This document shows, piece after piece, positions 3,812-53,193 of a DNA stretch of 64,000 bases. The DNA comes from Bugula neritina. Its lineage: Eukaryota > Animalia > Bryozoa. Under the pieces are notes generated by a model. That model was not told the DNA's origin and did not search any database. It worked only from the letters and a program-made list of their open reading frames with translations. The stretch lies in contig OZ037771.1 of NCBI GenBank assembly GCA_964035545.1, positions 11,970,480-12,034,479 of the forward strand. Direction: 5' to 3'. Within the stretch, counting starts at the first letter, position 1, and the number at the start of each line of letters is the position of its first letter. The position numbers and the translations under genes are program-made.

Positions 3812-5290
<1,479 letters not shown>

Positions 5291-22200: not shown

Positions 22201-25200
22201 ATGTACATATGTATGTATGTACGTATGTATGTATGGCCAAATCTGTTATAAAGTCATATGTTCAGATGTGTTATGAATATACATAATATATAGATTGTCT
22301 TACTCTTGCCGAAATAACATTTCATCTTGTGAGAAGTTTTTATTTTTTCTTAATACTTCTCCTGGTCCATCTGTAAAACTTGACCATGTGGGTTGACCCA
22401 TTGAGAGGTATGGCGATTTTAGTTCTTCCAGTTCAACAGCTGGTGTACCTAGATCACATATTATGCATTAAATTTACAACTGCATACAAATGTCTGTGAC
22501 ATAGCAATAGTTTGCACAGTAAATTTCCAAACTCCCATAACTATGTCTAACATAAAACTAAAGACTCTACTAGCTATACAGCCAGTACCTAAGTCATCGG
22601 TTTGGTGTTGCAGAAACTGCAACATTTAGCCTGGGATGTTAAGTTCTGGTTTCAAGCTTAGGTTTGGAGTAAGAGGACAACAGGAGGACAACATCTCGCG
22701 CTAAATACTCAATATAGGTTTGATATTATTCATACAGTGAACTGTAATTTTACCCTCAAACTATAAGCCTAAGATAGCTAGTGGCTGATTATTTTTAGAA
22801 AACTGGCCTAACCAATTTTAGTAAAAGTTTCATGAAACACGTCTTTCTGACAGCTACTTACAATCTAATGAGTCCTACAAGTTAAAAACTTTGTTATGCT
22901 CTTAACACTTCACCTAATCAAATCTACTTCCACTATGCAGAAGTTAATGAATAGCAGATCTAGTCTTTGAAGTTGTTTTTAAAGATCAACAGCAGTTTAT
23001 TGTTTTTGTTCAAAGATGTTATTTCACATACATTAAACAATATATACAATAAGACATATAGTGTAGTAACTTGTGGCTTTTGAATGTAATCAGGCAGAGA
23101 ACATAACTCTTTGCAAGTAGTAAGAGATAAGAGAGTCTTGTTTATTGTGCGCCAAGTAAAATTTATTGATAAAAGTAGTTCCTTCTAGTGCGAGCTCCTG
23201 TCTTCAACTGACTGTGAGCCTGAAATAGGCTTCCTTTTATACTAACACAAAGGTCATTCTAGATCCTTTGACCAATAATCGGCCGAACTTCGAAATGTCG
23301 GGGTTTAGGGTGACCGCATTCAGAATGTCGGTTAGTTGACATGCTGAACTTCAGTCGAGGCCAATTTACAATGAGTAAGAAAAAATAAGATAAGATTATG
23401 GGGCAAAGGATCACGATTTAAACGTTGATAATTATGAAAAATGTGTAATAAGGGGGTAATTCTATAAATACCACACACACCCGTATCAGAAAGTACATTT
23501 TCTGATACAGCATAAAGCTAATGGTATCGAGAAAAACTGGTGCAAAGAAGGGTGGAAAAGTTGGTGGGTTGAGGAGTGAGATGTGGAGATCTGGAAGAAG
23601 TGCTGGTAAAACGGGGAGTGGTGTTAGAGGATCGGGGTTTGGGTGTTGGTACTGGAAGGTTGAGAGGTGGTGGTTAACGCCTGCAAGTTGGTACTGGCGG
23701 GTCTAGGTTTCTTTCGTGCAGAAGCAACAGGGGTCAGGCCCCGCGCAGTGTTATCGTCTACTCCAGCCAGCACGACCCGAAAGGGTTGGGTGGTTGTTGG
23801 CTGGCTGGCTGCCGTGGGTCCCTCATCATCTGTGTCTTCTCTCGCAGGCCGACACGCCGAAAACCTTTGGAGGAGCGTTGCCCGTTTACGAGGGTCCCTG
23901 ATGTGGGTCATGATGAGTTCCCGAAACTTGGGGAACGAGGCTTCGTCAACCACAAATGTCCTGCCTGTGTGTCAACAACCTATGCGCTGGTGGCGCAGCA
24001 CATATTTCGTTGATAGGAGTACTACCCACATGAGCAGAAAACATTTGCATAGTGTTGTGGGGCGTGTACCCTCAGTCGTCAAGCGTTGGATAATTTCTTC
24101 TCGCATTGGCGGCACTTGAGGTTACCAGCCTCACCACACGCTCTGTCAATCTTGAGGCGGGTGTCTACTGTGATCCAGTGTTGGCGGTTATAGCTAACAC
24201 TCTGAGCAGCTCCAGTGCCTTCCATCCTTGGTCTCCTTTGTCAATTTCTATTGCTCCGCGTTCCAGGATAACCTGCTCTTCCCTTGCAGGTAGTTGTACT
24301 TCTACGGGTTCTAGAGCAGGCTCCACTGGAGCGACGAGCACTTGCTCATCAGGCCTGGGTGAACCTTTCAGGCTGGTGGCAGCTGAACAAGGGTTCCTAG
24401 TGAAAAGGGAGTGGCGCTGATTTGCCTCGGCTTTATCTATGTCCATCAGATTATCTAGAACAGTAAATACAGGCTGTGACTGGCCAATCATAACACTCCC
24501 AAAACTCGGCAATTGCTTATACGGTGCTTTAACAACTGGAACTTCAGGTGAGTCTAAGAGAGCTGCCAACCGCAAGTCCCGGTCAAACAGGTAGTCAAGG
24601 AGACACTCGTTGCCGAAAGTTATCTGGAAATATTTAATTATAGTAATTTCAACTCGATTGATTAAAGAAAGTTTATTAAAAGTTAGACTGAACTCCGAAA
24701 ATAGAGGGTCTAGTCTTAGAGAAATACCTGACTGAACACGGTTGTCCGACATCTCGGGTAAAGTTATTCCCATTTTAAATTGCTAAGGAGTTGAAATTGT
24801 GCGTACATTTGTGACTTAAGTAAAAGCTGAAATGACCAAACCCCATATTGTCAAATTCTCATGCGATGACCCTTTGGTCACGTGTCTGGTCAGTTTCCCT
24901 GACAATTTTTGGTAGGACAACTTTCTACTTTGACCCTCCTCTGATTTTTGACATGTGTTTTCAACTCTCTCAGGGAAACTTGTCCATCTTTTGAGACGTC
25001 TGACCATGCGAGAGTCAGAGTGCATGCCTGTACCAGGTGTACCACTCCTAGATAGGAATGTATCTATGAGCCCACTGTGATAGTCGGCCAAACATTTCGG
25101 GGGCTTTATGCTTCATTTCTGTCTCCCTAAGTTGGCAGGCACTGATGTAGTTCTCCTCTGGCCGGCGGCACATCTCGTCGACGTTCCCGTGCCTTTTCCC

Positions 25201-28200
25201 AGCACGATGATCTATCTTATAGCAGAACTCATCAAAAATCTCTAGCCAACGGGCCACCTGACTCAAAGGTTCAGCATGTTTGCACAGCCACATCAGTTAT
25301 GCATGGTCGGTTCCTAACCTAAACGCTCTCCCATACAGATACGGTTGGCAGTGCTTAGTCGCATTGACTACTGCCTAGAGCTCCTTCTTGGTGGTGCAGT
25401 AGTTCTTCTCAGCAATCAAAAGAGTCTTACTGTAGTAAGCCACTACCACCTTTGTTCCACCCGAAACTTGGGACAGAACAGCTCCTACACTATGGTCGCT
25501 GGCATCAATGTCCAGGCAGACTCTTTGACCGAGTCAGAGTATGCCAAAATAGGCGCTTCCATCAGCCGATTTTTGACGTGGTCAAACGCCTGCTGCTCCT
25601 TTTGGGTCCACTGTCACTGGGTTTTCTTTGCAATTAGCTTATTCAAAGGCTTAGCCACTCTTGAAAACCCGGGTATGTTCTCTCTGTAGTTCCTCACCAG
25701 GCTCAAGAATGCCCGCAACCCAGGAAGATCTCGGGAGACAGCCCGCCCTCCACAGCCTGCACTTTCTCCTGGTCGGTAGCAACGTCATCACAGCCAATCA
25801 CATGGCCCAAGTACTTGACTTCCGGCTGTAAAAGTGTACACTTGGTGAGCTTCAACTTTAGTCCGGCAGCTCGAAGACGGTCAAAGATCTCCCACAGATG
25901 ACTGGCATGAGTCGCAAAGTCTGGGGAGATAACGATGACATCATCCAGGTAGATGAGCAAAGTCTTTCAGTGCAGGCCACTGAGGACCTGCTCTATGAGT
26001 TGTTGGGAAGTTGCCGGAGCAGATGTCAGTCTGAATAGTAATACTTTCCAGATCCAGAGCTCGTTGCAAGTGATGAATGACGGCTTGTTCTGAGCATCAG
26101 GACTGAGGGGCAGCTGCCAGTAACACTCAGCAGATTCGAAGTACAAAATACTTGCTTCCCGCGAGGGCATTCAGAGACTCATTTATCTGAGAAAGGGAGT
26201 AAGCATCCTGGATGGTAACACTATTGAGTTTGCGGTAGTCTATGCACAACTTCCAGTTACCATCCTTCTTCTTGACTTGAACTACTGAAGGGCTCCACGC
26301 ACCGTAGGCAGGCTCAATCAGATCTTGGTCGAGAAGATCGTGCACTTGCCTGCTTACCTCCTTCTCCGGGCCCAGTCGCCAAGTCAGCTGCTTGATGGGA
26401 GTGATTTCAACTGCTAAAGGTATCTCGTGGCAAACAAACTTGGCCAGCCTCAATTTCCTCATCTTTATAGCTGTAAACGTCACTGTAATCCATGAGTAGT
26501 CGAGCCAGTTCTTGGCGTTCAGCACTACTATTACAGTTCCGCAGGCTCCATCATATAGGTCAGCCATGTGTTCTGGTACCGCTCCTCAGCTGGCCTGGGG
26601 GAGAAAAGGGTTTCCTGTGTGTCCGCTACTGTCTTCAGTGCCGGTCCCACATATGTTTCTTGAATAGAGTGGTACTTCCCCAGAAAAGTGCCAGCCGACG
26701 GCATGTTAGGATACGCGAAAGGGTTAATGAACTGTACGAGAATTCTAGCAAATTTAGGCATCCCCTCCACCACTCCCAGTCCCGCTATCCTCTTGCAGTT
26801 AACCTTGCAGCATAGAATAGTCGTGGACCGTCCGGGTAGCATGCAGTTTTGTACTACCTGTACTCTGCCCACCAGGGGCCTACCAAACTTTTTATTGCAG
26901 ACAAGTTCCTTTCCGGCCACCCATAACACCGAGTTCTGAAAGTCCATGCTACACTGGTGTTTTTACAGGAATGGCATGCCCAAGATGGCGTCCTCCTTCA
27001 GATAGCTGGTGATAAAAAGTCTCGTGATTCACCAAAGCACCACACCCCTAGCAAGTAGGCTGCGTAGGCCTGGTAAGGTCGCCCCGAGAATCGGGCTTTG
27101 GTTATCAGTCTGTTGTTGTTGCATTTTCATTACTTCCAGTTGCAGGTTTTTCACCATGTCTAACAACATGGTGAACTGCGGGAGGTTGGTGCCGCGCTAG
27201 CAACGGGGTGACTTGAGCATTCTCCTTGCGTGTTTCCTCCCCTTGAATTGCGGTAAAATCTGCTCCATGGGGGGCGTCTTCTTGATAGTCGGACCATCCC
27301 ATGTCAGTGCTTCTTCTATGGTGGAAATCTTTGCTGCCAGGTAATAACGCTAGAGTCCGCTGTTTTTCACTGTTCTGAAGCAAGCCTCATAGACTAGGTG
27401 CTGTCGTTCTTGTGGATTGGTGCGGCTGTATGCTATTTGTGCCAGTTTCTCTATGGGATTAGCATGGTCCTGTAGGAGGTCTTTCGGTTTCTTCGGAGGC
27501 TCTGTAATCTGTCTTGAGCGTCCCGGACGGTTAAATATTGAACCTAGCCCAGAGTGCCTGAAAGATGTGGTTTACATCTGATCTGAGTGCATTTAGCTGG
27601 TCTGGTCAAGCAGGATTGCAGCTGTAAAAGTCGTACCAGTGCCGGCTACTCCGCGATGGTAGCCACATCCTCAAATTCTCTAATAAATTGTTCACCATTG
27701 CTGTTGCCTCCAAAAATCAAAGGCCAACAGCGGTACCTGTCATCATGTGGCGCCTGACTAGCTCCACCGACTTCTCAGATGGCTGTAACTAGGGTCTCCA
27801 TCGCGAGAGCCTCTCCTCTTTCTTCTATCTTAGTCATCTGGCTCTTTTCTCTATTTCTTGTAAGGCTGTATGATTATTCGTGATATCATCACTGCCACCA
27901 ATGTAGTAACTTGTGGGTTTTGAATGCAATCAGGCAGAGATTGTAACTCCTTGCAAGTAGTTAGAGATAAGAGAGTCCTTTCTATTGTTTGCAGAGTAAG
28001 ATTTATTGATAAAAGCAGTTCCTTCTAGTGTGAGCTCCTGTCTTCAACTGACTGTAAGCTTAAAATGGGCCTACTTTAACTAACACAAAGGCTATTCTAG
28101 AACCTTCACCCAATAGTCGGCTAAAGTTTGTAATGTCGGGGTTTGGGGTGGCCGAGATTCGGACTGTCGGAGACCGACATCGGAATGTTGGTTAGTTGAC

Positions 28201-29933
28201 AAGTTGAACTTCGGCTGAGACCGATTTACAATGAGTAAGCAAAAATGAAATAAAGTTAAGGAGGCAAAGAATCACGATATAAATGTAAATAATTATGGAA
28301 AATGTGTATTAGGGGAGTAACTTTATAAAACACCTCAATAGGTGTACGGCTGGAATGCTGCTGATACCAACAAAATATTGCTGTTGTGTTGCTACAAGTT
28401 CAGTTTGCTGAGACTGGAATAGGAGTAAACAATATATGTGACATATGAGTTGCGTATGTAACAGGTGAGCTGATTATGTGACAGATGAGCTGAGTATGTG
28501 ACAGGTGAGCTGAGCATGTGACAGGTGAGCTGAGCATGTGACAGGTGAGCTGAGCATGTGACAGATAAGCTGAGTATGTGACAGGTGAGCTGATTATGTG
28601 ACAGGTGAGCTGAGCATGTGACAAGTGAGCTGAGCATGTGACACGTAAGCTGAGCATGTGACAGGTAAGCTGAGCATGTGACAGGTGAGCTGAGCATGTG
28701 ACAGGTGAGCTGAGCATGTGACAGGAGAGCTGATGCAATAAAGCATGTAAGAGAAAGCATGTCTGGTACAAATGGCACAGATAAAACTGGCACAGATAAA
28801 ACTGTAACAGGTAAAAATGGCACAGGGAATAATGGCACAAATGGAAAAACAGGTATAAATAGTACATTTTCAGTATTGGGGTTTAGGTGAAAGGTTGGGA
28901 GTTTAGGATGTGAGGTTTAGGTATGGGAATGGGGGTTTTGGTTTGGGGTTGGGGTTTAAGAGTTGGGGTTTGGGGAAATTTAAAATCATGATGTGCCATT
29001 TTTACCTGCTTTTTTATTTGTGTCAGTTTTACAGTGCCATTTTTACGTGTGCTATTTTTACCAGTGTCAATTTCACCTAAAATCATAAAATAATGTAACA
29101 GCAATAAAAATAGACATTTCAAAAATATTATGTCTAATTTGCTGTTCCATTACATAGTTAGAACAGACACAATTTACATACGTATTTCTACACTGCCCTG
29201 AGCACGAAATGGTCGGAAAAGATTTGTCTGTTGGTGCTGCCCATCTTCTCTTTGACCTCTACTTGAGAGATCACCATGAGAATGCTCTTCACTGCTCGTA
29301 GCACCATCTTCTCCTTGACCTCTACTTGAGAGATCATCATGAGAATACTCATCACTGCTAGTAGCACCATCTTCATCTGTTTGTGTTTCAGTTTCCCCCT
29401 CAGCCTAAGCAGTAATAGAAGTAAGGAAAGGAGAGAAGGAGAAATTGCGTAGTGCTTAAGATAGATGTAGCAGCATCGAGCCATAAGCATGATTGGATCA
29501 AAATTGAATAACGTTAGTAGAATCGGTTAAAATAACATTGTGGTTCTGCAATATTTTACTGATTCAATCTTCCATAATGTAGTCACAATATTATATTAAC
29601 GTACTTTATACATTTGCTATCAGGTACTAGTATACTACTTCATGAATTCATGAATTTTAGACTTTCACATTATTGGAACTTATGACTGTGAATTTATGAT
29701 TAAATGAAATGCAAAACAAAGTATGCAAATTAGAAAATATGCTTATATCCTTTGTATATTAAAACACTTACTAGTTCATCAGAAGCCCTTAAAGTTGTCT
29801 GCTTTTTTCTTTCAGCCTTAGCTTTTCTACTGTATTTTTTGTAACTGAAGTACACCCTTCCTGATATCAAAATGACCGAAATTAATATAATAATAAGTGC
29901 TAATAACACTGATGCATTTACTATCAGCTCCAT
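19229..29933 (-). CDS. Membrane-anchored divergent trypsin-like serine protease, paralogue 2; exons 29933-29772, 29404-29182, 22448-22304, 21609-21548, 21365-21185, 20904-20017, 19874-19229 (about 768 aa)
   Basis: GT-AG introns with matching phases give 2307 nt open frame. N-terminal hydrophobic helix VLLALIIILISVILISG is followed by basic residues. Motifs FAVVPAHF, NDIVLLEL, NGHSGTIV and LGMLVG. The last five exons are conserved in paralogue 3; joining the first two exons is inferred from phase only. Confidence 0.72.
21835..22233. repeat. (GCGTGTAT)n 8-bp tandem repeat grading into (GTAT)n
   Basis: Directly visible; intronic; source of spurious YACMRVCV ORFs. Confidence 0.97.
23062..28337 (-). 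mobile_element. Decayed Gypsy LTR retrotransposon lacking integrase (LTRs 27902-28337 and 23062-23475)
   Basis: Two diverged LTRs, ATAG TSD on both sides, degenerate Leu PBS (tggtggcagtgatgat), gag/RT (YLDD)/RNase H fragments, then a jump at about 25095 to the pol tail and an ORF3 homologue. Confidence 0.9.
23624..24773 (-). pseudogene. Disrupted divergent ORF3 (zinc-finger protein) of Gypsy element
   Basis: Reading across stops and a frameshift gives CRQCEKKLSNA*RLRVHAPQHYANVFCSCG*YSYQR..YVLRHQR...FVVDEASFPKF, matching ORF 50984-52072. Confidence 0.8.
28455..28735. repeat. 20-bp minisatellite (TGTGACAGGTGAGCTGAGCA) about 14 copies
   Basis: Directly visible tandem units. Confidence 0.95.
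28765..29078. repeat. Foldback/MITE-like element with inverted arrays of short repeats
   Basis: Left arm of (GGTAAAAATGGCACA)-like units, GT-rich centre, right arm of (TGTGCCATTTTTACC)-like units. Confidence 0.6.
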
Positions 29934-30144
29934 TCCGTCGTTCAGTTAGCATAGGAGATGATGTTGTTGATAAGCCCAGCTGCTGCTAACACTTGCCTGT
30001 AGAAAAAATTACATAACTGATGGTGGTACAACAATGGTATCCCATATTCAGTGCACCATGACTTGCCAAAAACCATACTATAACAGTATAAAGCCACTGT
30101 AGTATTCAGTCAGTCTAGTTCCATTCAAGTGTTATATGGTTTCA

Positions 30145-30450
30145 GGTAGTGTCATACAGGTCTAGGTGGTGTCATATAGTGTTAGGTGGTGACAAATAGT
30201 GCCAGGTGGTGTCATATAGTGTCAAGTGGTGTCATACAGTGTCAGTTGATGTCATATGGTGTCAGGCAGTGTCATCTAATGTCAAGTTGTGTCATACAGT
30301 GTCATTATAAGATCAGGTAGTGCCATATAGTGTCAGGAGGTGTCATATAGTGTCAAGTGGTATCATGCAGTGACAAGTGGTGTTATATAGTGTCATGTGG
30401 TGACATGTATATGGTGTCAGGTGGTGTCATGGTCTCAGGTGGTATCAGGT
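30145..30450. repeat. Degenerate 20-bp minisatellite (GTGTCAGGTGGTGTCATATA)
   Basis: Visible 20-bp periodicity over about 15 units. Confidence 0.85.
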
Positions 30451-30880
30451 AGGGTCAGGTTGGGTAGCTACTAGACACAATTCTCAGTAAAATGGTGGTG
30501 GATTTGAGTGCCATTACATTCATGTAATCAGTGCATGGCGTACAGCCTTATCTATAACAAACACAGCTAAAAATAGCTATTATGTCATGTGAGCTTTAAC
30601 ATCCATTGCATAGAGTAGAACATGCCTTTGAAAAGCTCACCAATTAAACTTCCTTTACGAGGTAAGCCTGATAGTGAGGTGGATAAGAGCTCACCACACA
30701 CTAATAAGTGAATCAGCGCTGTAACCCTCAGTAGGATTGGTACTCTTACAGTTCTGGTAGAGCTGTCCTGCATGTAATACTGTAAATATAGCACATGCAT
30801 ATAACACCAGTAGCTGTGAATGGTGGTCACCTTTCACCGCCATGGTCCTGTGCGGGTGGCTGGACCAGTAGCTATGAATA

Positions 30881-33360: not shown

Positions 33361-34435
33361 TTAATCCTGGGCTGCTCGTTTCATACGTTTGATGGACTCC
33401 TGTAGCGACCGGAGCTCACTGGATGCGGCATGAATGCGGGGGCCAGTCTGTATACCTCTTGCTCCAGGTCGTTTGCCCTAGTCTCTACTTCTCGTAGGTT
33501 GTGGGCCAGAGGGGATGAGCGGGAGAAAGTCCGCTGTTGCCAGTGTCTTTTTCGTTCTGAGGATGGAAGTGGGGGAGGGAGTGTGTACGTCTTCGTGTCT
33601 ACCCTCTGTAGTACGACACGGGGGAGTGTATGCGGTTGACGTATAGGATTGAGAGGTGGGAATTAGATGATTTTGTAGGCTTATCCATGGGTTCAGAGAT
33701 GATGGGTCGAGGAGAGGGAAAGCCTTGCTCCAGGCGAAATAGCCGAGCTGGGTCGGTGATGAGAGGTCTGATAGCTTCGAGGAATGCGGAGTAAGATGAT
33801 TTATCCACGTCGTATACGTGTCCCTGAAAGCAATGCATGGTGCGTTGATGACGCAGTAGATAGTCTCGATTATAACTATATTCCCCGCAGGGGCAGAACG
33901 TTGTGATAAAATGCTGCGGCAAGTGGACTCTCAGTCTCCGATGGGTTGTAAACCGCTGTTGACATAGCCGGCACTCGCGGTTATTGTCATCTCCTCTATG
34001 TTTCTTAATTTCTGTCTCTGTGGCAGGGGCAGTCCAGTTAGAGGTTGCTTCTAGCTGGGGTGGCAGTTGTCTGGTTGTGAAAGTTGGTGGGGCCGGCTCT
34101 GGGTCCCACGCCATCTCTAGGAAAGGCATGCCCGGAGAGACGGGCGCGAGTGTGTCTACAAAAGTAAAATTATTGTTAGATCGCGGTGGATCTTTACAAC
34201 ATAATTCTAGCGACTGTCGACTGTTACTAGTCTGAGAGTCACAACTCTTAGAATGCACTCGAGAGACCAATAAATCATGTGTGAACTGACCAAGAACAGT
34301 GTCTAGCTCCAGGTCTAACAGACCGTCGGCCATTACAGTGTCCTCGTCGTCATTCACGTGAAACGTGGTCCCCAGTAATTCTGATTCAATCTGATGAATT
34401 AGCTCAGAATTTACTGGCATCGAGCCCGTTTCCAT
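33361..34435 (-). pseudogene. ORF3 zinc-finger/coiled-coil protein with two frameshifts
   Basis: ORF 33599-34435 (CRLC...[17 protein letters not shown]...LRHQR) continues in a shifted frame as LPRVVLQRVD...ERKR...NLREVETRANDLEQEVYRL to TAA at 33361. Confidence 0.85.
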
Positions 34436-41397: not shown

Positions 41398-44300
41398 TCA
41401 AGAAATCCTATCTGTGTCAAGGTCAGAACTGCTTGAGCAAGTATCATATTCTCGATTCACCACACGGTGTGTGGTTATAAAAGGGTTGGCAAACTTCTTA
41501 GTAGTGTAAAGCACCTGGGAGAGATAAGAACAGACTATCAACAAAATAAACAATGAAATCACCAGGTAATTTAGCATACTGAGTAACAACATGTGCAGAC
41601 CACCTCGTAGCCACTACAATCAGCAAGGAGGTGTGTAGTTGCAGCAACAATTCTTTACTTCACCATACAGTATTCATTAAGAAATTAGGGGGGCGGAAAA
41701 CTTGCCATCCTGCCTTATCGGGTCTAAATTATTAAATTAGCGGAGTCAAGACTGAGAGGCAAGTCCTCTAGCAAAAAGAGAAATGCAGCTGATTGCTGGA
41801 AAATATTTGAAATAGCAAATATGAGGAAGATGTTAGTTATCAGCAATTTTCAACTTTAAAACTCCTAACAAAAAAAATTATAAAAAGATTATTATATCAC
41901 AATTCCTTAGCAAGCCTTAACTTCTGTACTCACACACAAGAGAGCTACAGTACCTGTACTCATACACAAGAGAGCTACAGTACCTGTACTCACACACAAG
42001 AGAGCTACAGTATCTGTACTCACACACAAGAGAGCTACAGTACCTGTACTCACACACAAGAGAGTTACAATATATGTACTCACACACAAAAGAGCTACAG
42101 TATCTGTACTTACACACAAGAGAGCTACAATATCTGTACTCATACACAAGGGAGCTACAGTATCTGTACTCACACACAAGAGAGCTACAGTACCTGTACT
42201 CACACACAAGAGAGTTACAATATATGTACTCACACACAAAAGAGATACAGTATCTGTACTTACACACAAGAGAGCTACAATATCTGTACTCATACACAAG
42301 GGAGCTACAGTATCTGTACTCACACACAAGAGAGCTACAGTACCTGTACTCACACACAAGAGAGTTACAATATATGTACTCACACACAAAAGAGATACAG
42401 TATCTGTACTCACACACAAGAGAGCTACATTATCTGTACTAATACACAAGAGAGCTACAATATATGTACTCACACACAAGAGAGCTACAATATCTGTACT
42501 CACACACAAGAGAGCTACAGTATATGTACTCATACACAAGAGAGCTACAGTATATGTACTCACACACAAGAGAGCTACAGTATATGTACTCACACACAAG
42601 AGAGCTACAACTGTGCCAATAGTGAAGCCAGCTAAGACGTCAGTTGGATGATGTTTATTGTCCATAACTCTGGAGAGACCACAGAACCAGGCCATACAGA
42701 TGAGGATAAACTGGATGACGTGTTTCACCAGGTAAGTGTAGTCAAAGCGTGGAACTCGCTGCTGTACATAACACTGCAGAAAATAAAAACAAGGAATCAA
42801 TTATAGTATTTTTATTCTGCACTGCACCGCGTGTTGTATGCTGTCTTTAGAATCTAGAACACTAGAACACCTACCAGGACATCTGCTGATAAATCTTAAA
42901 ATTAATAAGAAATTACAAAAGTATTTTAATTGATTGATTTATTGCATATCACAGATATAACAACATGTCGCAAAAAAAAGGTCAGGGTAAATAATGGCTA
43001 TAAAAGTAACAGGCAGAGAGATTTATTACTTTTATGGTGAGAAAACCAGAAGAAGATAACCCATCACAATCTTGTTCAATCGGCGGCACTTACTGAGAGA
43101 TAGGTGGCAGCAAAGGCAGCACCGGACGCATGTGCAGAAGGGAAAGACGTCCTCAGCTCATATTCCTCCATCTGATCAACAGCCAGACACGTGAAGTTGG
43201 TGATATACTGACCGTCAAAGCAGGACGACAACTCCACACTTGGCTGACACGCTTTCACGAAGTTAGGTCTCAGTTGACCAGAGCTGTACTTGGCTATGTC
43301 AGTAACAGCTGGAAATATTATCAGTATGAGTCATGGTAACAAAATGGCAGCTGCCTACTGTATCAGTTAGTAAAGATATGCTTTCTCAACACTAAACAGT
43401 TAAGTTTTCGATTATAAAAACTCCAACATGTATTAACATAGTCAATAGATTAGAAATACACATACAGCATATTATAATATCAGTAACAAGATTAGTGTTG
43501 GTTCAACAATGAAATAAAAGCCACAAAATACTAGAAAAACTTTGGACAAAAACTATTATTTGTCTAAATTTGGCTGCGAATGTATGTTAAAAGCAGTAGA
43601 CTTTGCATCAAATTGTGATGGTAATATGGTGAAGGAAATGAGAAAGGTTAAAAATAATACATGTATAATCGATTTCAGCTGAACATCTCACATGATAAGT
43701 CCGGCAAGGTTTGCTAGAATGTGCATAGGTTAGCAAATGGTTTCCTAACAAAATTGAAAGAAATTGAAATATGGCGGTTAAGATTAAGCTGACTCATAAA
43801 AGATTCACAATAAGCTTACACTGAGTGATTAAAGATCCAAATAACATCATGAAGTAGAAAGAGAAAATACTGTATAGGCAAGGATTTACAGAACAGCAGC
43901 AGACATCTTTATTAGGAATGACAACTCCCTGTCCCAGAGCTCTTCTGTATTGCAACACTTCAGTCACTATAAACTAGAACAAGTTAAGTTTATTAGTTAG
44001 CATTTGAGTAGAAAAGGTTCGAGATAGTAAGAGAAAAAGATTTGATATCAAAAAATATGTAACAAGCCTGACCAGCACTTACCAGCACGGCAGAGATGGT
44101 AAATGCTACGGCAGCTACAAGCCAACTTGGTAATGTAGTCTTCATATTAGGATACAGAATAGTTGGATCATTACAGAAAAAACCTCTTTTTGTTGGTGAA
44201 ACTTTCCCAATGTAAATCACAAGAGTTGGGGAAATCACTAAAAATTATTGTAAAATCATAATTCTATGATTAAACCATATGACTACTAGCCGACTCACTA

Positions 44301-47300
44301 AGAACTGCCCTTTTTTCATTGTCCCGCCCCCTTCCTCGTCACCTGCCCTGTATGCAAATTCTGATGCTACAAGAGGGTGCAGATATGGCAGCCCTAAACA
44401 TGCTCATAAGTAATAAAGTGACTTGATTAAAAAATCCTATCTTAAGCTACAATGTATTTGTTGTTAGCATAGACACTAATCTATAAAATATTTAGGTTAG
44501 CTTAGATTACAGTCGTTTACATTGATCTCAATACCGCCATTGCAATCATAAATGCTAATATTCATATTGGCAGTCATAGCCATAGTAGACATATGAAAGT
44601 ACTAATGCTATTATTGAAACTTTTCAACCACCCATGGCAACAATTAATAAGTTAGGTGCATGTTCTCTTAATAATGATACTTTCAATCGCAGAGTGAGCG
44701 TCACAAAATTCTTATACTCATATCCGTGTACTAAGTAAAATTATCAAGAGTTTTACTAATATTGATAAATTTTCATTACTACAGTAGAGATAACTATCAC
44801 TTAATGTCTGGCTATCCTATGATACTCTATGAGTCCACAATAAGTATGAAGTAAAAACACTACAAGTACAAGACTAAAACTGTAACTTATTCTTAGGGCG
44901 AGAGTCGATAGAAGTCGGTGTAATTAATTTCTTAGCAATACTAATACCAATAGTTACTAAAAGTAAAAGTAAATAAACTAGAAGTAGAACTAAAAAAAAT
45001 CTATCATTGAAAATAATTATATATTAATTTTAATTAATTAAACTAATTAATTAAAATTACCGTAGTATTACTATTAGTATCACTAACAGTAATAGTATCA
45101 AAAATAATATGGTGTAGTGAGGACGTAATACGCGCGTCCCCCAAACGCCTTCAGCCTATCGGAGTGCGTCACGTGATAACCCTCAGCGAGTAGTAGTTTA
45201 TCAGTAGAGAGAGCGTACTAACTAAGCGAAGATGTAATTTCTAATCTGTGTACGTGTTGTATCTTTCTATATAATTAGTAGCGAATAAACTTTGTAAACT
45301 CTTACTTAAATACTTTATTGATGTGAATAAATAGACTATAATTACAAGCTAGGAACCCACGCATAGTAATTGCACAAATTACTACAGTGGTGGCAGCGGT
45401 GGGATTTCTAGCTACTATATAAGGACAATGAGAAGTATTAGAACATCATGGACGAGAGTGTAACTTCAATGGAAGAAGGTGAGCGAAACATTATTATAGG
45501 CCCTCTCGGAGCTGGAGAGGAGGTATATAGGAACACATTGGAGGTTCCCGTGTTCACGGGCCTCGAGGACGTTGAACAGTTCGTCCAAGAGTTCCGTGAA
45601 GTTGCAGCCATTACAAGATGGCCGCCAAGAGTAACTTTTACGAAACTGCGGATGGCACTGACGGAAGAAGCCAAGCCGTACGGGTGGAAGCCTAGCGTAA
45701 ACGGGATCATTGCTACACTACGGGCCCGTTTTGGCATGCCCGTTGCCGTCGCCAAGTCCAGGCTGCGAGGATTACTCCGCAAGACATGTACACCGCTTCC
45801 TGACCACGCCACTCTGGTGCAGAGACTGGCACGGACCGCGTATAGCGATCTGCCAGAAACACACAGACGGCACTATACATTCGAAGCCTTTGTACAGTCC
45901 CTCAACTATTTAGACTTCCACCACCAGTTACAAGCCAAGGGAGTAACCACGATCGAGGCTGCAATCCAGGAGAACAAGGCCTACGCTGGAGCCGAGCGAC
46001 TCTATAAGATGGAAGAGGCCACTCCCCAGACCTCTAGGGAACCAGACCATCCGGTCCGCATAGCTGCCGCGACCATTAAACCCCCCATAGAGATGGAGAT
46101 AAGCCGCTTGATGACTAAATTGGGACAATTGGTGGCGACGATAACATACAACCACTCAAGGAAGAGTAAGAAGACGGCCGCAAAGCCCCCCAGACCTATG
46201 ATGCGACGCTGGGAAAGCGGCAACCAGGGGCACCGCCGCCCAAGCGGCCCACGATTCCAACGGCAGCAGTAGCCACAACCTCCCTGGAGACCTCCAAAGC
46301 TCCGCGGGCCCAAACCGAGAGGAAAACGGGGTGGATGTCGCCAGGAGCCCGTACGGGCCCAGCGGCACGCCCCCCATCAATGGCAAACACCCCGGCGAAC
46401 CAGCCAACCGGGTCGACCACGACACCCCTTCTCTCTGCCTCTCACCAACCGCTTCGGTCCGTTACCAGTAATGGAACAGACCAGCGAGGCCCCTCAGGGC
46501 ATCGGGGGGGATCAAAACACCTTCCCGCAAGGAAACTCTCACCGGCCCCGCAAACCGCGGAACAAACGGGCACAGCCCCGTTCGGCCGAGACCGAGCACG
46601 CTGGGGGAGTACGGGTACAACCCCACGGAGGCAGCTACTTCTTGCCAGGGAAGGTGGCCGGTAAAGCTGTCACCTTCCTGTTAGACTCCGGGTGTACCAC
46701 TAATCTCCTCAGCCGTCGGGTCTTCGACACCCTCCCTCTCAAGGAGAGGGGAGCCTTAGCTCCCTATACCGGGGAACCGGGCACCCTAGCTGACGGGTCA
46801 CGGATTCCTTTCTACGGTATCATAGAAGTGACTGGGCGCGTCCGCGACCAGGCCATTCAGGAAACCTTCGTCATCAGCCCACTGGAGGAAGATGCCATAC
46901 TGGGGATGCCGTTCTTGAAGAGACACGGGTGCCATATCGACTTTAGCAAGTCAGCCATGCTAATGGGCGGCAAAGAGCTCACCTGTGTCGACAAGTTCGG
47001 TCGTCCCCTAGCGGGAGGTGTGCAGGTAGTACGGAACTGTACTATACCCGGCCGCTCCTGGGCTACCGTTCACTGCAGAGTGAACAATAGCCAACTCTCG
47101 GGGTTAGGGGTTGTCGAAGGTGCGCACACTAGAATCCAACTCGCCAGCAGTCTTAACCGGCTGACTGACCGAGGAGAGATCTTGGTGCAGTGTGTCAACC
47201 CCTTCTCCGAAGCGGTACAATTACCGTCAGGATCCATGCTGGGTCGCTTCCACTCCATCCAGGAGGAGGATATAGGGCCGTCGCTGGGAGCTGCGACGGA

Positions 47301-50300
47301 AGGTCCCCAACAGAGCCCGTCAGTTAGGCGGGGGACCGTCCCACCACACGTCAAAGAGCTATACCAGGCAGCGTGTGACGGCTGCACGGGCAACGTGGAA
47401 CGCCAGACTATGGCTCAGTTGCTACGTGATTATAGCGACGTGTTCAGCAGTGGGGACCATGACGTCGGCCTGACCACGGCCGTCCGTCATGAGATACCGC
47501 TTGCTGCAGAGACTACCCCTATTCGACAGCCCACTAGGAGGCTGGGACCCGAAAAGGAAAAGGAGGTCAGCCAACAAGTCCGGGATCTTTTGGACCGCGG
47601 CCTCATCGAGCCAGCACATAGTGCGTGGAGTTCGCCGGTCGTTCTGGTCCGAAAGAAAGACGGCAATTGGCGGTTCTGTGTGGATTATCGCAAGCTCAAT
47701 AGCGTGACCATACAGGACGCCTACCCCTTACCCAGGATCGACGAATCTCTGGACGCCTTAGCCGGCAGCAAGTACTTCAGTACGCTAGACTTGTTGAGCG
47801 GCTATTGGCAGGTCCCCCTCAGCCCAGACGCCCAGGAGAAGGCGGCGTTCATCACGCGGGACGGCTTATGGAAGTGGAAGGTCCTTCCCTTCGGACTGAC
47901 TTTTGCCCCCGCCACGTTCCAGCGGCTCATGGAACAGGTCCTCAGTGGACTGCACTGGAAGACACTGCTAGTATACCTCGACGACGTCATCGTGATCTCC
48001 CCAGACTTTCAGACACACGTCAGCCGTCTGCGGGAGGTCTTCGATCGACTCCGAGGCGCCAATCTGAAGCTCAAACCCTCCAAGTGCGCTCTCTTGCAGC
48101 CAGAGGTGAAGTACCTGGGGCACGTCGTCGGCCGTCACGGTGTGGCGACGGATCCTGAAAAGGTACGAGCTATAGAAGATTGGGTAACCCCCAGGATTTG
48201 ACCGGACTACGGGCTTTCCTGGGGCTGGTAGGGTATTACAGGCAATACATACCAGACTTTGCGGGGGTAGCGCAGCCATTAAACCGGCTCACCGCAAAGG
48301 GGGTGACCTGGCAGTGGACTCCCGTCGAACAGAGAGCGTTCGACTGCCTCAAGGGCCGCCTGCTGGAGGCCCCTATCCTGGCCTATCCAGACCCTGCCCT
48401 GGAGTACATCCTCGATACTGACGCCAGTGACCAAAATGTTGGCGCTGTGCTGTCCCAGGTGCAGGAGGGCCGCGAAGTAGTCGTGGCCTACTACAGTAAG
48501 TCTCTCTCGCCCACTGAACGAAATTACTGCACTACCCGAAAGGAATTACTGGCAGTAATCAAGTCAGTGAAGCATTTCAGACCTTATCTATACGGCAGGA
48601 AGTTCCGCTTGCGGACCGACCACGCCTCCTTGATTTGGTTATGCAAGAGAGCAGAACGGTCCAGCCAAGTCGCCCGATGGCTCGAGGTCCTGGCCGAGTT
48701 CTCTTACCGGATCGAGCACCGACCCGGTAAGAAACACGGCAATGCTGATGGACTGAGCCGGCGACCGGACGAGGGGTGTAAACAGTGCCTCAACATCGAG
48801 AAGAGGGACGGAGGTCCTCCAAAACCCGAGTTGAGAGCACTGAACCACTCTGAAACGGAGTATGACTGGGACCAGGGTCAACTCCTACAGAAGGCCGCTA
48901 CGCCCCCGGGGGCTATCCAACGCCTCCGTGCCAATCCTGTTTTGGCTGATAACGTTAGGGAGCTACGAAGACTCTAGGAGGACCTCCCTGGAGTGGTAGC
49001 CGACGTATATCGTGCCAAAAAGGAGGGGCGACGACCCAGTGAAGAACAACTGCGACAGGGATGCACCGAGTTACGGTCGTACTGTCAACGTTGGGACTCC
49101 CTGCGGATCGGGCCAGATGGTCTGCTGACCATCACAGTGGCTGCTCACAACAACCAGTACGGCAGGAAGAGGGTGATCTGCCCAGCCGCCATACGCCGGG
49201 AGTTAGTATGGGACACCCACAAACAGGCCCACGCCGGGGTGAGCAGGGTGCTCTCCAAGTTACAACTCCGGTGGTACTGGCCCGGCATGGAGCGTGAGGT
49301 CTGGCGTAGAGTCAAACAATGCGAAATCTGCCAGGCCAGCAAGCATGGCCGTCTCCCTGGCGTAGCGGGACGGCGTAGGCTATATGCTGGGAGGCCGTGG
49401 CAGGTGGTAGCTATCGACCTAGTCGGACCCATGCCCGTCACCCCCAGAGGAAACAGTTGGATCCTAGTATTAACCGACCACTTTACGCGGTGGGCGGACG
49501 CCCTGGCTATTCCAGATGCGTCCGCCCCCACGGTGGCCAGGGTGCTAGACCAAAATGTATTCTGCTATCTTGGACTACCTGAGCAAATACATTCGGACCA
49601 GGGGGCTCAATTCCAGTCCCAACTGTTGAGCGACCTCTGCCGCCTCTGGGGAGTAAACCAAAGCCGGACCACCCCGTACCATCCTCAGGGCAACGGGGTG
49701 GTGGAACGCAACAACCGCATGTTGGGCGATACACTGCGCAGTCTGCTCCTCGGCCGGGGTCAGGAGGAGTGGGATACGGTACTGCCGCAAGTCATGCGGG
49801 CCTACCGTAGTACACCACACACCAGTACGGGGGAAACCCCTAACTTCCTGATGCTCGGTCGAGAGACGCGAGTGCCTGACCACCTCACATACCACATCCC
49901 AGAGCAGGACTATACCATCCACGAGTATGCCAGTAAATTGATAGAGGACCTGAGGGCCGCACACGAAATACTGCGGGCGAAGCAGTGGCAGGTACGGCGA
50001 GAGGACTCTCAGGAACCACCCCTCTATCAAACTGGGGACTGGGTGTGGATGGTCAACTACCGTAGGCGTCGAGGACAAGCGGCTAAGCTCCAGCCTAAGT
50101 TTGTGGGACCCTACGTAGTAGTTGAGGCTATGCCCAATCATACGTACAAGTTGGAGCGATCTGGACAGGTCTCTGTCCAGAACGAAGCCCGCTTGAAACC
50201 GTATTGGGCTAGCCCAGGAGCAGCAGGAGCAGCCCCCCCCCCCCCCCCCCCGTTGTTGGAGCCCAGGAGGCAGACAGTAACGCGCGGGCGGCAACGGCAT

Positions 50301-53193
50301 GAACCAGAATACGAAGTGGTTGTGCCGCGGGGAGAGGACTTGGTGAGGCAGGAGACGCCACTCCCACCAACGGAAGTGCGCCCACCGCCCCCAGTACCAA
50401 GTCTACCCCCACACCTTCCGGTTCCGCATCCGCGTTCGAAAGTGCAAAACCCCCCCGTGGGAGGGGCTCCATCTGGAGACAACAGCGGAGAGGGAAACAC
50501 CACCACCAACGGCGGGCCAGAAACACCACAGGTGGAGCAAAATAGCCCACCAGTGAGTACGCCGCCCCAACCAACAGCTACAACCCCCTCTCCAGCTGAT
50601 ACGTCACCTCCCCTGGAACGGGAACAGCGTACTAGACAACCCCCAGCATACCTTAAAGACTTCATATGTGACCGTGTTACAAACGGCAGTTATGAAAGTC
50701 TAGCTGGGCGCCGTACGGAAGGACTGGCAACAAAGCGTGGGAGTTGTGAACACCACGGAAATCTCAACTTTTGCGAAGGCGGAGTAGTAAACAAAACTAC
50801 TACGCCCGGGGCAAATAGTTCCAGCCGTGCGCAACAACCACGCTGCCCAGTCTTTTCGTACGCTGACGTTGTCAAGGGCAGACGCATTCAAACTCAATCC
50901 ACGGACATGCAAGCTTGAACGCTGAGTATGATTACAAATACCGGGTTCTCAGGTAAGCTTGCTCTGAGCTAACATTTCCACTCATGGAAACCAGTCTACC
51001 ATCAGTCAGTTCTGATTTAATCGCCTTGATTGAATCACAACTACTGGGGACTGAGTTCTACGTGAAAGGCGACGAGAACATAAAGATGGCCGACGATCTA
51101 CTAGATCTGGAGTTTGACACCATGTCTCTCTGTCAGTCTACACGACACGACTCAGTCCCTCGAGTGCTATCTGAAAAGATGTATGACTCCCAGACTAGTA
51201 ACAGTCGGTTGTCATCAGAATTATGGTGTAAAGATCACATTCGATCTAACAGTAATTCTGCTCTTTTAGATACCGCTCTCTCTCCTCTCTCTGGTGACAT
51301 GCCGTCACTAGAAATGGCTTGGAACGAGGAACCCGTTCCCACTACTCTTCCGGAGGCACTCTTACAGCAGTCATGCTGGGTTACACCAGATACAGAAACA
51401 CTGATACGAGAGCACAAAGGAGACGACCAATGCACCACCTGCCGTTTATGCCAGCTTCACTTCACTACTCCACGAAGACTTCGAGTTCACATTCCCCAAC
51501 ATTATTTCACCACCTTTTGTCCCTGTGGTGAATATAGTTACCACAGGGACTACATCCTCCATCACCAGCGAACTATGGGATGCCATGTTGGACACCTTTT
51601 CGAAGTCGACGAACCCTCCTTTCCACAATTCCTTAATCTCATCCGACCATTCATATCAGACCCAGCTCGCTATGAACGGCTGCGTCAGGAATTCCCCGCA
51701 CCCAGGACCATCACAAAAGGACTCTGCCCTAAACCACCCGAATACAGGAAACCACACGTACCCCGTCCCTCACCCCCCGCACGCACAGTGCCCCGCCCCG
51801 ACTCTATACCCAGAGTCATGTTACGACGCATCGATATACCACAGCGATGGCGTCCCTCTCCCCCCGTCTCCCCAAGGCCTTCTCGTAAACGGCGTTGGCC
51901 ATCTTCGTCCCCCAACCGACACTCTGCCCCTGCCCGGAATCTAGGCGAGGCAGAAGAGCGGATACGAGAATTAGAGAAGAAGGTGCAAAGACTGACACCG
52001 AGAATCTCCGCCGCCGCATCAGAACTCCGGGCCCTCTCTGCCTCTGTAGCCCGAATGAAAGGAAGCGCTTGAAGACGATATCCCCCAAACTCCCTACCCG
52101 TGATGGTACTGCAGGTGGTGCTCCATCCCGAACCCTTCTCACGCCGGTGCTCACAAACAATTACTCAGTGTGACAATATTATAGTAACCTACCAGTATAC
52201 AGCTCTACCTCTATAGACTATCCTCTTACAAGTGCCTCCCGCCGGTGTCATTGTGTATTTACTGTTATATATTTTTTTATATGTGTATGTTTTTCTTATT
52301 ACTGTACATAACCATGTTCTTTCTTTTATGTGCCACACGCTCTCAGTTTTTTTAGTTTTATAACGTTTTATGTCTGAATTAATTGTATCTGTGTTATCAG
52401 AAAGTAGGGCTTTCTGCTGGGGGGGACGGTGTAGTGAGGACGTAATACGCGCGTCCCCCAAACCCCTTCAGCCTATCAGAGTGCGTCAAGTGATAACCCT
52501 CAGCGAGTAGTAGTTTATCAGTAGAGAGAGCGTACTAACTAAGCGAAGATGTAATTTCTAATCTGTGTACGTGTTGTATCTTTCTATATAATTAGTAGCG
52601 AATAAACTTTGTAAACTCTTACTTAAATACTTTATTGATGTGGATAAATAGACTATAATTACAAGCTAGGAACCCACGCATAGTAATTGCACAAATTACT
52701 ACAATAGTTTTACTTCAAGTTAGTAATAATTGGTAGAACTAGATAAAAAATAACCAATAGGTATTACTATAACTATTAGTATTAGACTTAATATCACTAA
52801 TAATATTTTCATTACTATTACTATTACATTTACTATTAGTACTACTTTAGAGTTCAGTAACAACACAATTAATTTATATTAATTATTTAATGACATTATG
52901 ATTACTTGGTAATAAAATAAATAACAAGTTAAAAATCAAATAAATACAATAATGAATAATGTTATTAGTGTTATAATTCATAATTGAGAATCATAATAAA
53001 AAATTATAATCCTAGTGATATCAAATAAACAATCACTGATCAGTGATCAGTCTGAGTCTCACAACCAGAATCACGATCACAACGACAATCGCTCAATGAC
53101 AATGAGTATCAGTATGACGATGGTTGCTCGTAGCTTACCAAATAATATTACTAGGAAATCAACAAAAATCTGACGTGTTCTTTTTCTAGCCAT
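41398..53193 (-). CDS. PAP2-family phospholipid phosphatase (PLPP/wunen-like); exons 53193-53139, 44237-44083, 43973-43820, 43308-43094, 42773-42594, 41514-41398 (about 291 aa)
   Basis: GT-AG introns with compatible phases, 876 nt. [14 protein letters not shown]1 [10 protein letters not shown]2 SFPSAH, C3 [12 protein letters not shown] and multiple hydrophobic helices. Confidence 0.92.
41925..42610. repeat. 30-bp minisatellite (about 23 units) spanning an exon end and splice donor
   Basis: Minus-strand unit TGTAGCTCTCTTGTGT|GTGAGTACA(G/T)ATAC. Confidence 0.97.
45388..45405 (+). other. Primer binding site complementary to tRNA-Leu 3' end
   Basis: TGGTGGCAGCGGTGGGAT, identical to the PBS at 39910-39927. 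Confidence 0.9.
45448..46272 (+). CDS. gag: Gypsy Gag-like protein
   Basis: 274-aa ORF after the PBS, homologous to 39029-39895. Confidence 0.85.
   Translation: MDESVTSMEEGERNIIIGPLGAGEEVYRNTLEVPVFTGLEDVEQFVQEFREVAAITRWPPRVTFTKLRMALTEEAKPYGWKPSVNGIIATLRARFGMPVAVAKSRLRGLLRKTCTPLPDHATLVQRLARTAYSDLPETHRRHYTFEAFVQSLNYLDFHHQLQAKGVTTIEAAIQENKAYAGAERLYKMEEATPQTSREPDHPVRIAAATIKPPIEMEISRLMTKLGQLVATITYNHSRKSKKTAAKPPRPMMRRWESGNQGHRRPSGPRFQRQQ
46273..50918 (+). pseudogene. pol: Gypsy pol (protease, RT, RNase H, integrase) with one frameshift (about 48190) and one stop (48975)
   Basis: FLLDSGC, YLDD, ILDTDAS, HKQAH...CEIC zinc-binding motif, DDE core and GPY motif across ORFs 46471-48201, 48180-48977 and 48993-50918. 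Confidence 0.95.
50984..52072 (+). CDS. Retrotransposon ORF3: acidic N-terminus, two zinc-finger-like motifs, PxVxL motif, basic cluster, C-terminal coiled coil (362 aa)
   Basis: Intact ORF between pol and PPT with CRLC-x12-H-x3-H, CPC-x12-H-x5-[14 protein letters not shown] and [15 protein letters not shown]...[12 protein letters not shown]. Homologues at three other loci. Confidence 0.88.
   Translation: METSLPSVSSDLIALIESQLLGTEFYVKGDENIKMADDLLDLEFDTMSLCQSTRHDSVPRVLSEKMYDSQTSNSRLSSELWCKDHIRSNSNSALLDTALSPLSGDMPSLEMAWNEEPVPTTLPEALLQQSCWVTPDTETLIREHKGDDQCTTCRLCQLHFTTPRRLRVHIPQHYFTTFCPCGEYSYHRDYILHHQRTMGCHVGHLFEVDEPSFPQFLNLIRPFISDPARYERLRQEFPAPRTITKGLCPKPPEYRKPHVPRPSPPARTVPRPDSIPRVMLRRIDIPQRWRPSPPVSPRPSRKRRWPSSSPNRHSAPARNLGEAEERIRELEKKVQRLTPRISAAASELRALSASVARMKGSA

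Follow-up and report, generated by a model that had tools for sequence, protein, structure and literature searches.

Complex retroviruses characteristically encode regulators of their own. In foamy viruses, a regulatory gene located 3' in the element codes for Tas, which activates the long terminal repeat (LTR) via cis-acting response elements (PMC12789967). Animal Gypsy-type elements of bdelloid rotifers carry third open reading frames (ORF3s), non-env ones among them, in sense orientation between pol and the 3' LTR; the main text of that study describes env, GDSL esterase, DEDDy exonuclease, transmembrane (TM) and coiled-coil types and uses the word 'zinc' 0 times (PMC5408684). Additional ORFs also lie between pol and the 3' LTR of the plant Tat, Retand and Grande elements, where some encode nuclear proteins that are possibly regulatory (PMC7264820). 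VANC of the VANDAL DNA transposons is a transposon-encoded accessory protein that favours expression of its own family, and a 2019 review knew of anti-silencing by transposon-encoded factors in no more than three cases, each of them in plants (PMC6719617). Here we describe ORF3 of a Gypsy lineage in the bryozoan Bugula neritina, a conserved accessory gene with a two-finger zinc domain and the predicted layout of a transcription activator. It was found in the window, a stretch of 64,000 nucleotides (GCA_964035545.1, contig OZ037771.1, positions 11,970,480 to 12,034,479).

The window is AT-rich DNA with several Gypsy LTR elements. An earlier analysis of the letters alone (the sequence-only reading) had claimed an extra ORF between pol and the polypurine tract (PPT) in four elements with different LTRs, and both parts of that claim were borne out. 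The four elements and their ORF3 copies are:

45113-52703, plus strand: element A, in the order LTR, primer-binding site (PBS), gag, pol, ORF3, hairpin and PPT, LTR
50984-52072, plus strand: ORF3 of element A, an open frame of 362 amino acids
32775-40236, minus strand: element B, with LTRs 98.1% identical (pair 39929/32774) and a perfect 4-bp target duplication
33361-34435, minus strand: ORF3 of element B, open from the N-terminus through the finger domain and then disrupted by two frame breaks
23062-28329, minus strand: element C, older than B (LTRs 78.8% identical, pair 27902/23062)
23624-24773, minus strand: ORF3 of element C, with stops and frame breaks within the fingers
3812-4428, plus strand: ORF3 of remnant D (the 3' end of an element, continuing into a PPT at ~4836-4870 and then an LTR), second finger and C-terminal part with a frame break

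A tblastn search of the window with ORF3 of element A recovered the copies at 34435-33370 (minus strand; 55% identity over 264 columns, E 7e-89), 3827-4407 (plus strand; E 5e-26) and 24177-23587 (minus strand; E 4e-14). Every copy lies upstream of a conserved hairpin, a PPT and an LTR, and the LTRs of different elements gave no blastn match to one another. ORF3 of A is open as had been described; it is only ORF3 that is intact in A, pol being broken. The other copies are disrupted, with the qualification that the finger domain of B is whole and the breaks come after it, and remnant D does retain the second finger.

ORF3 is under purifying selection. Over 256 codons of A and B the proportions of nonsynonymous and synonymous differences (pN and pS) were 0.277 and 0.708, and the ratio of the corresponding rates (dN/dS) was 0.16 (bootstrap 0.08-0.26, from the 417 of 500 resamples with a defined dS), far from the value near 1 that the sequence-only reading had named as contrary to a conserved gene. 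The finger core had pN 0.23 vs pS 0.82 between A and B, and the comparison of A with D gave pN 0.33 vs pS 0.90. Control ratios were 0.28 for gag, 0.03 for reverse transcriptase (RT), 0.11 for RNase H and 0.18 for integrase. Constraint on ORF3 is no weaker than on gag, and ORF3 is therefore a gene of the lineage. Its protein has diverged at about ten times the rate of RT (dN 0.35 vs 0.03). The longest stop-free run in 2000 same-base shuffles was 288 codons (median 100) against the 362 residues of ORF3; this result and the purifying selection led us to reject a chance ORF.

The maximum hydropathy of ORF3 over 19 residues is 0.93, and a value above 1.6 occurs in only 1 of 63 relatives. Because it has no hydrophobic membrane segment, ORF3 is not env, as had been proposed, and no viral fusion protein was among the matches listed for it in Pfam, PDB sequence or fold searches. 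Pfam gave no match to an SGNH or DEDDy domain in 45 aligned family members, no chromatin-reader or chromatin-enzyme domain in scans of the ORF3 family, and no chromodomain in the integrase ORFs or in ORF3, which lies in another frame with its own ATG.

The centre of ORF3 is a domain with two zinc fingers:

51347-51718, plus strand: two-finger zinc domain, ORF3 residues 122-245, with a core of ~95 amino acids

Both finger motifs reported from the sequence are present. Finger 1 is C-x2-C-x12-H-x3-H, with a spacing of 11-13 in 53 of 53 members of a diverse domain alignment (24-60% identical to element A); finger 2 is C-x-C-x12-H, and the position of its eighth zinc ligand is not fixed. C153, C156, H169, H173, C179, C181 and H194 are invariant in all 53 members, and W132 and V208 almost invariant. 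The loop after H194 holds another C or H in 47 of 48 parsed members, and the eighth ligand is probably C200. The linker between the fingers has five residues in 52/53 members and is not of the canonical TGEKP type. Of the VD..SF motif that was said to be kept, A and C have the full form, but B reads SY and D reads TF. Throughout the family the helix of finger 1 is basic (K/R at position 164 in 47/53, 165 in 39/53 and 167 in 33/53), and the finger-2 helix keeps S-R-D (33/53, 43/53 and 38/53).

No Pfam family reaches its cut-off in the domain of A, including zf-C2H2 (E 0.056, 14.6 bits vs a cut-off of 27); ESM Atlas gave weak C2H2 leads. Full-text literature searches returned no description of ORF3 within the texts they covered, with Repbase, Dfam, GyDB, subscription journals and supplements outside their scope, so that a Repbase entry may exist. 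Keyword checks of LTR surveys in annelids, of an env survey across metazoans and of a survey based on GyDB likewise found no such ORF in the text available for each. The domain is apparently undescribed, in agreement with the sequence-only reading, and widespread.

A first AlphaFold model, built on a shallow alignment, was poor (pLDDT 64.5); Foldseek found nothing with it, and the viral fold library was searched with this model only. With a deep alignment, residues 122-245 were predicted as a compact finger pair, with a pLDDT of 96.4, a pTM of 0.87 and agreement among five models. The predicted fold comprises the helices of the two fingers, a linker that forms a strand, an additional F-E-V-D strand and flanking helices; a conserved W-x4-T helix before the fingers and the Y/F-E-V-D strand and helices after them would complete one compact domain. 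The best VIA-align row was Kaiso (Z 3.6, root-mean-square deviation (rmsd) 2.7 Å over 57 residues), covering the two fingers only. C2H2 finger arrays titled as DNA complexes made up 9 of the 10 best structural matches (Kaiso, ZNF524, ZBTB20, SALL4, CTCF, ZBTB38, ZBTB7A and HIC2; rmsd 2.3-3.8 Å over 50-57 residues). The predicted structure shows C2H2 ancestry, in agreement with the profile matches to finger proteins, and neither a function nor a new fold.

A single-sequence search with ORF3 found 70 proteins of 49-99% identity in JGI, ENA and Logan records; 23 of them begin with an ME-[T/M/I/D]-type N-terminus, and the gene's own ATG is conserved. A profile of the core matched 307 proteins at E<=0.001 and 89 at 1e-10 among 1.84 billion 50%-identity representatives. 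The best 150 of the 307 were examined; at least two of these proved to be multi-finger proteins of the ordinary kind and did not enter the alignment. The full seven-ligand motif is present in 174 of 251 collected proteins. Scans of metagenome, viral and prokaryote contigs gave 0 confirmed relatives.

Several relatives are themselves linked to retroelements. In three proteins from two clusters (P0190, P0231 and P0206) a Gypsy protease, 39-47% identical to the protease region of A, is fused in frame to the domain; these fusions have no RT or integrase match and may be non-autonomous elements in which the regulator was retained. In another protein of the family, P0072, an integrase-tail motif lies upstream of the domain and in frame with it. 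An organism was named for 4 of the 28 clusters looked up, and all four are annotated bryozoan genes (Bugula neritina KAF6040922/3; Watersipora subatra XP_067940963/4 and XP_067944745), which may be domesticated genes or unmasked element ORFs. The domain is duplicated in tandem in P0089/P0243, P0251 and P0108; two of these three cases are annotated bryozoan genes, namely Watersipora XP_067940963/4 and Bugula KAF6040923, the neighbour of KAF6040922. In quick trees of ~125 columns with many open forks, the window lineage was sister to the Watersipora two-domain protein with an SH-aLRT of 96 in one tree and 36 in the other, and the protease fusions fell into the other main branch. Retroelement-linked members therefore occur in both main branches, and the link between domain and retroelement looks old as judged from these sequences. 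A one-clade test gave a p-AU of 0.0009, which is only indicative because the group was named after the first tree had been seen.

The fingers are framed by three predicted regions:

51002-51130, plus strand: predicted acidic activation region, ORF3 residues ~7-49, in which five tiles pass a published rule
51719-51943, plus strand: Pro/Arg-rich basic stretch with an RKRR resembling a nuclear localization signal (NLS), net charge +15, 27% Pro
51944-52069, plus strand: C-terminal heptad repeat, a coiled coil predicted from sequence

Residues 1-120 carry a net charge of -13. Among 63 relatives with long flanks, many of them close, the N-side is acidic in 55 and the C-side basic in 48. Activation was predicted with the revised rule (equation 3) of PMC10550315. 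The N-sides of 14 of 21 diverse relatives and the C-sides of 2 of 21 passed, and 100 shuffles of the N-sides passed in a mean of 4.9 and a maximum of 11 of 21. ORF3 yielded 5 passing tiles in A and 25 in B, and three gag/pol control pieces yielded 0. The basic motif is found in 20 of 28 close relatives that hold the region, and matches to CENP-A, all at E>=0.096 and inside the Pro/Arg-rich stretch, were rejected. Heptad periodicity in the last 80 residues reached a shuffle p<=0.1 in 14 of 21 diverse relatives; a homodimer prediction for residues 312-362 scored 0.03. By prediction, the acidic region, fingers, basic stretch and heptad tail together are the layout of a transcription activator. 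The earlier proposal of a likeness to a nuclear chromatin regulator is supported for the nuclear-regulator-like layout but not, as worded, for chromatin: the Pfam scans found no chromatin-reader or chromatin-enzyme domain, and the order of the parts matches a transcription factor.

These predicted parts (two C2H2-type fingers in a compact fold, an acidic activation region, an NLS and a coiled coil) suggest that ORF3 could be the element's own transactivator, a reading to which we give about an even chance. In this model a spliced subgenomic RNA, with a donor in early gag and an acceptor near the start of ORF3, would be translated into the protein, which would enter the nucleus, self-associate and use its basic finger helices to bind DNA within the LTR of the element or close to it. 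Recruitment of co-activators would then set up positive feedback on transcription of the element. Among the three roles named by the sequence-only reading, transactivation fits best, and integration targeting is hinted at only indirectly.

According to the bdelloid study, ORF3 expression in LTR elements typically relies on spliced messages (PMC5408684). Two conserved stretches of A could serve such a route:

45474-45485, plus strand: candidate splice donor 1 (AAG/GTGAG, cut at the slash), in phase 1 of gag; the intron would start at 45479
50917-50958, plus strand: conserved 42-bp stretch after the pol stop, ending in CAG followed by GTAAGC, with candidate donor 2 or an acceptor at 50952/50953

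The 12 bases of candidate donor 1 are all identical between A and B, beside a stretch of 19% identity; the 42-bp stretch is 81% identical and the next 25 bp 40%. Sites with 8 of 9 donor-consensus positions occur only twice in A and in B, and they are homologous: in early gag (45479 in A, 39852 in B) and just before ORF3 (50953 and 34466). Both candidate donors are in phase 1, like the CAG at codon 7/8 of ORF3 in A and B, and the CAG before 50953 could be an alternative acceptor. No variant was listed at 50950-50958 among 17 contigs; the contigs of one run cover all 30 bins and are not independent, because they may be the window's own source. A spliced subgenomic ORF3 RNA is a tentative proposal, because the gene's own ATG is conserved, the pol stop in A precedes donor 2, and other exact runs are shared by A and B.

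Several observations weigh against a DNA-binding activator made from a spliced RNA. The likeness to known structures is weak: VIA-align found nothing at Z>=5 among 48,161 chains (best Z 3.6), Foldseek with the good model found nothing in PDB at E<=0.001, and AlphaFold may lean to familiar finger-pair geometry. The 5-residue linker, the C-x-C finger 2, the unfixed eighth ligand and the extra strands and helices packed on the fingers leave DNA binding uncertain. A single 6-mer and no 7-mer is common to the four LTRs; the S-R-D of finger 2 is fixed while the LTRs diverge beyond alignment, which argues against a simple code of one protein and one LTR site. The precision of the activation rule on human transcription factors is 0.2-0.7 by its authors' estimates (PMC10550315), and a stricter four-residue variant was failed by A (0 tiles) and passed by 11 of 21 relatives. 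The A-B dS of ORF3 is near saturation. The splice proposal draws on two elements that share other exact runs of 9-24 bases, and the conserved ATG of ORF3 needs no acceptor at codon 8.

ORF3 might instead be an anti-silencing factor in the manner of VANC, which would bind either element DNA or a silencing protein of the host and take away repressive marks or prevent them; the outcome, more element RNA, would be that of transactivation by another mechanism. We consider this unlikely. The accessory position of the gene and its tenfold faster divergence than RT would suit such a factor, the fixed S-R-D surface of finger 2 could meet a conserved host partner, and a precedent exists in plants (PMC6719617). 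However, Pfam scans gave no chromatin-reader or enzyme domain, none of the 14 tandem arrays listed at a score >=150 is a motif array inside the elements, the acidic-hydrophobic clusters suit activation better, and no positive selection has been shown.

C2H2 fingers can bind RNA, and a Rev/Rec-like post-transcriptional regulator that binds an element RNA structure such as the 3' hairpin and acts in splicing, export or packaging would make use of the Arg-rich basic stretch and the heptad tail. The hairpin is kept in four copies despite LTR divergence, and the splice-like motifs are conserved. This role, improbable in our view, leaves the acidic activation-like N-terminus unexplained; the best fold matches are DNA-bound finger pairs, and a hairpin next to the PPT may serve reverse transcription.

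An integration-targeting tether, comparable to the chromovirus chromodomain, would arise if removal of a 53-nt intron, from donor 2 to codon 8 of ORF3, extended Pol; donor 2 and the CAG at codon 7/8 are both in phase 1, so that the join would be in frame, and P0072 and the three protease fusions place Gypsy parts in frame with the domain. It is nevertheless an improbable role: the pol stop of element A at 50918 precedes donor 2 (the deepest contig there differs at 1 of 151 bases), a competing AG lies within the short intron in A, ORF3 has its own conserved ATG, and the protease fusions come without RT and integrase.

That ORF3 is a captured host zinc-finger gene carried as a passenger without benefit, or that host genes are merely similar to it, is hardly credible and already largely refuted for the window lineage by purifying selection between elements, by retention in four elements with non-aligning LTRs and RT pieces 57-66% identical (A vs C), and by retroelement-linked members in both main tree branches, even though the only 4 of 28 looked-up clusters with an organism name are annotated bryozoan genes and the genomic context of most distant matches is not visible.

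It is possible, though somewhat doubtful, that an old and widespread env-less group of animal Gypsy elements has its own sequence-specific activator, which is based on an undescribed domain of two fingers and translated from a spliced RNA, and would thus be 'complex' in the retroviral sense, the domain having also been domesticated and duplicated as bryozoan host genes.

The remaining parts of element A and the 3' signals of the other elements are:

45113-45386, plus strand: 5' LTR of element A (TG...CA), 98.6% identical to the 3' LTR over 276 bp (pair 45111/52428)
45387-45405, plus strand: PBS of element A, with 18 bases identical in A and B
45448-46272, plus strand: gag-position ORF of element A, 43% identical to that of B over 266 amino acids, with no Pfam match at cut-off
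46273-50918, plus strand: pol of element A, with its domains in Ty3/Gypsy order and its frame broken into three pieces (ORF list and Pfam)
52395-52429, plus strand: conserved hairpin and PPT of element A, 89% identical to B; the corresponding positions are 33115-33083 in B, 23507-23470 in C and 4836-4870 in D
52430-52703, plus strand: 3' LTR of element A, pairing with the 5' LTR

Element A has the paired LTRs, PBS, PPT and short target duplication of a Ty3/Gypsy element, its 4-bp flanking repeat having one mismatch. We take its PBS to match tRNA-Leu. Its pol runs protease-RT-RNase H-integrase in Pfam, with RVT_1, RT_RNaseH, rve and Integrase_H2C2 above cut-off, and is disrupted twice, the frame being lost near 48160-48200 and a stop codon lying at 48975-48977. 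In C, no integrase match was found in the 320-bp gap between RNase H and ORF3. The hairpin directly before the PPT (TATCAGAAA...TTTCTG) folds in four of four elements, while LTRs and 3' untranslated regions have diverged. Synonymous divergence between A and B is ~0.9 in pol, 1.8 in gag and 2.2 in ORF3, which could mean that the pol block has recombined or could reflect the higher GC content of pol at third codon positions (0.66-0.71 vs 0.48).

Elsewhere in the window, a fifth Gypsy pol fragment (17356-14153, minus strand) has no LTRs and no ORF3 match and ends inside integrase, and a solo LTR at 9135-9495 is ~70% like that of element C. Minisatellites lie outside the elements at 21828-22135 (8 bp), 28436-28733 (20 bp), 30129-30460 (20/40 bp) and 41923-42609 (30 bp). 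Three paralogous two-part ORFs on the minus strand (62740-61006, 20921-19229 and 8711-7238; 33-75% identical) share PAHFLL, NDxVLL and NGHSG motifs and resemble a divergent trypsin-type His-Asp-Ser protease family; the four pieces scanned gave no Pfam match at cut-off. Two related minus-strand fragments (61005-59584 and 2560-1807, 45% identical) read, we assume, like a Penelope-like RT end with a GIY-YIG-type endonuclease, and a 473-amino-acid frame among them had no Pfam match at cut-off.

Compared with known systems, ORF3 shares its position and sense orientation with the bdelloid ORF3s, which are of other types; it has neither a TM segment nor an enzyme match. The plant nuclear ORFs are antisense and plant-specific, whereas ORF3 is a sense gene of an animal element, and the text available for PMC7264820 uses 'zinc' 0 times. 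VANC belongs to a plant DNA transposon and acts by demethylation via tandem motifs (PMC6719617), of which no homologue or such array is found here. Classical C2H2 arrays (Kaiso/ZBTB33, ZBTB20, SALL4 and CTCF) share the canonical finger-1 spacing and superpose with an rmsd of 2.3-2.7 Å over ~50 residues; ORF3 differs in falling below the Pfam cut-off, in its 5-residue strand-forming linker, in the C-x-C of finger 2 and in its extra helix and strand elements. Tas is proposed as a functional model by likeness of a predicted role: it comes from enveloped retroviruses and has an internal promoter, whereas this Gypsy lineage is without env, and no sequence or fold match between the two was found in PDB sequence searches or in a viral fold search that used the poor first model only. 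Non-env ORF3s were known already; what appears to be new is an ORF3 with a two-finger domain and an activator-like layout. It defines a zinc-finger domain family that is missing from Pfam and listed as hypothetical proteins in genome annotations, and, as a conserved gene resembling a transcription factor, it is a direct candidate for the means by which animal Gypsy elements promote their own expression against host silencing.

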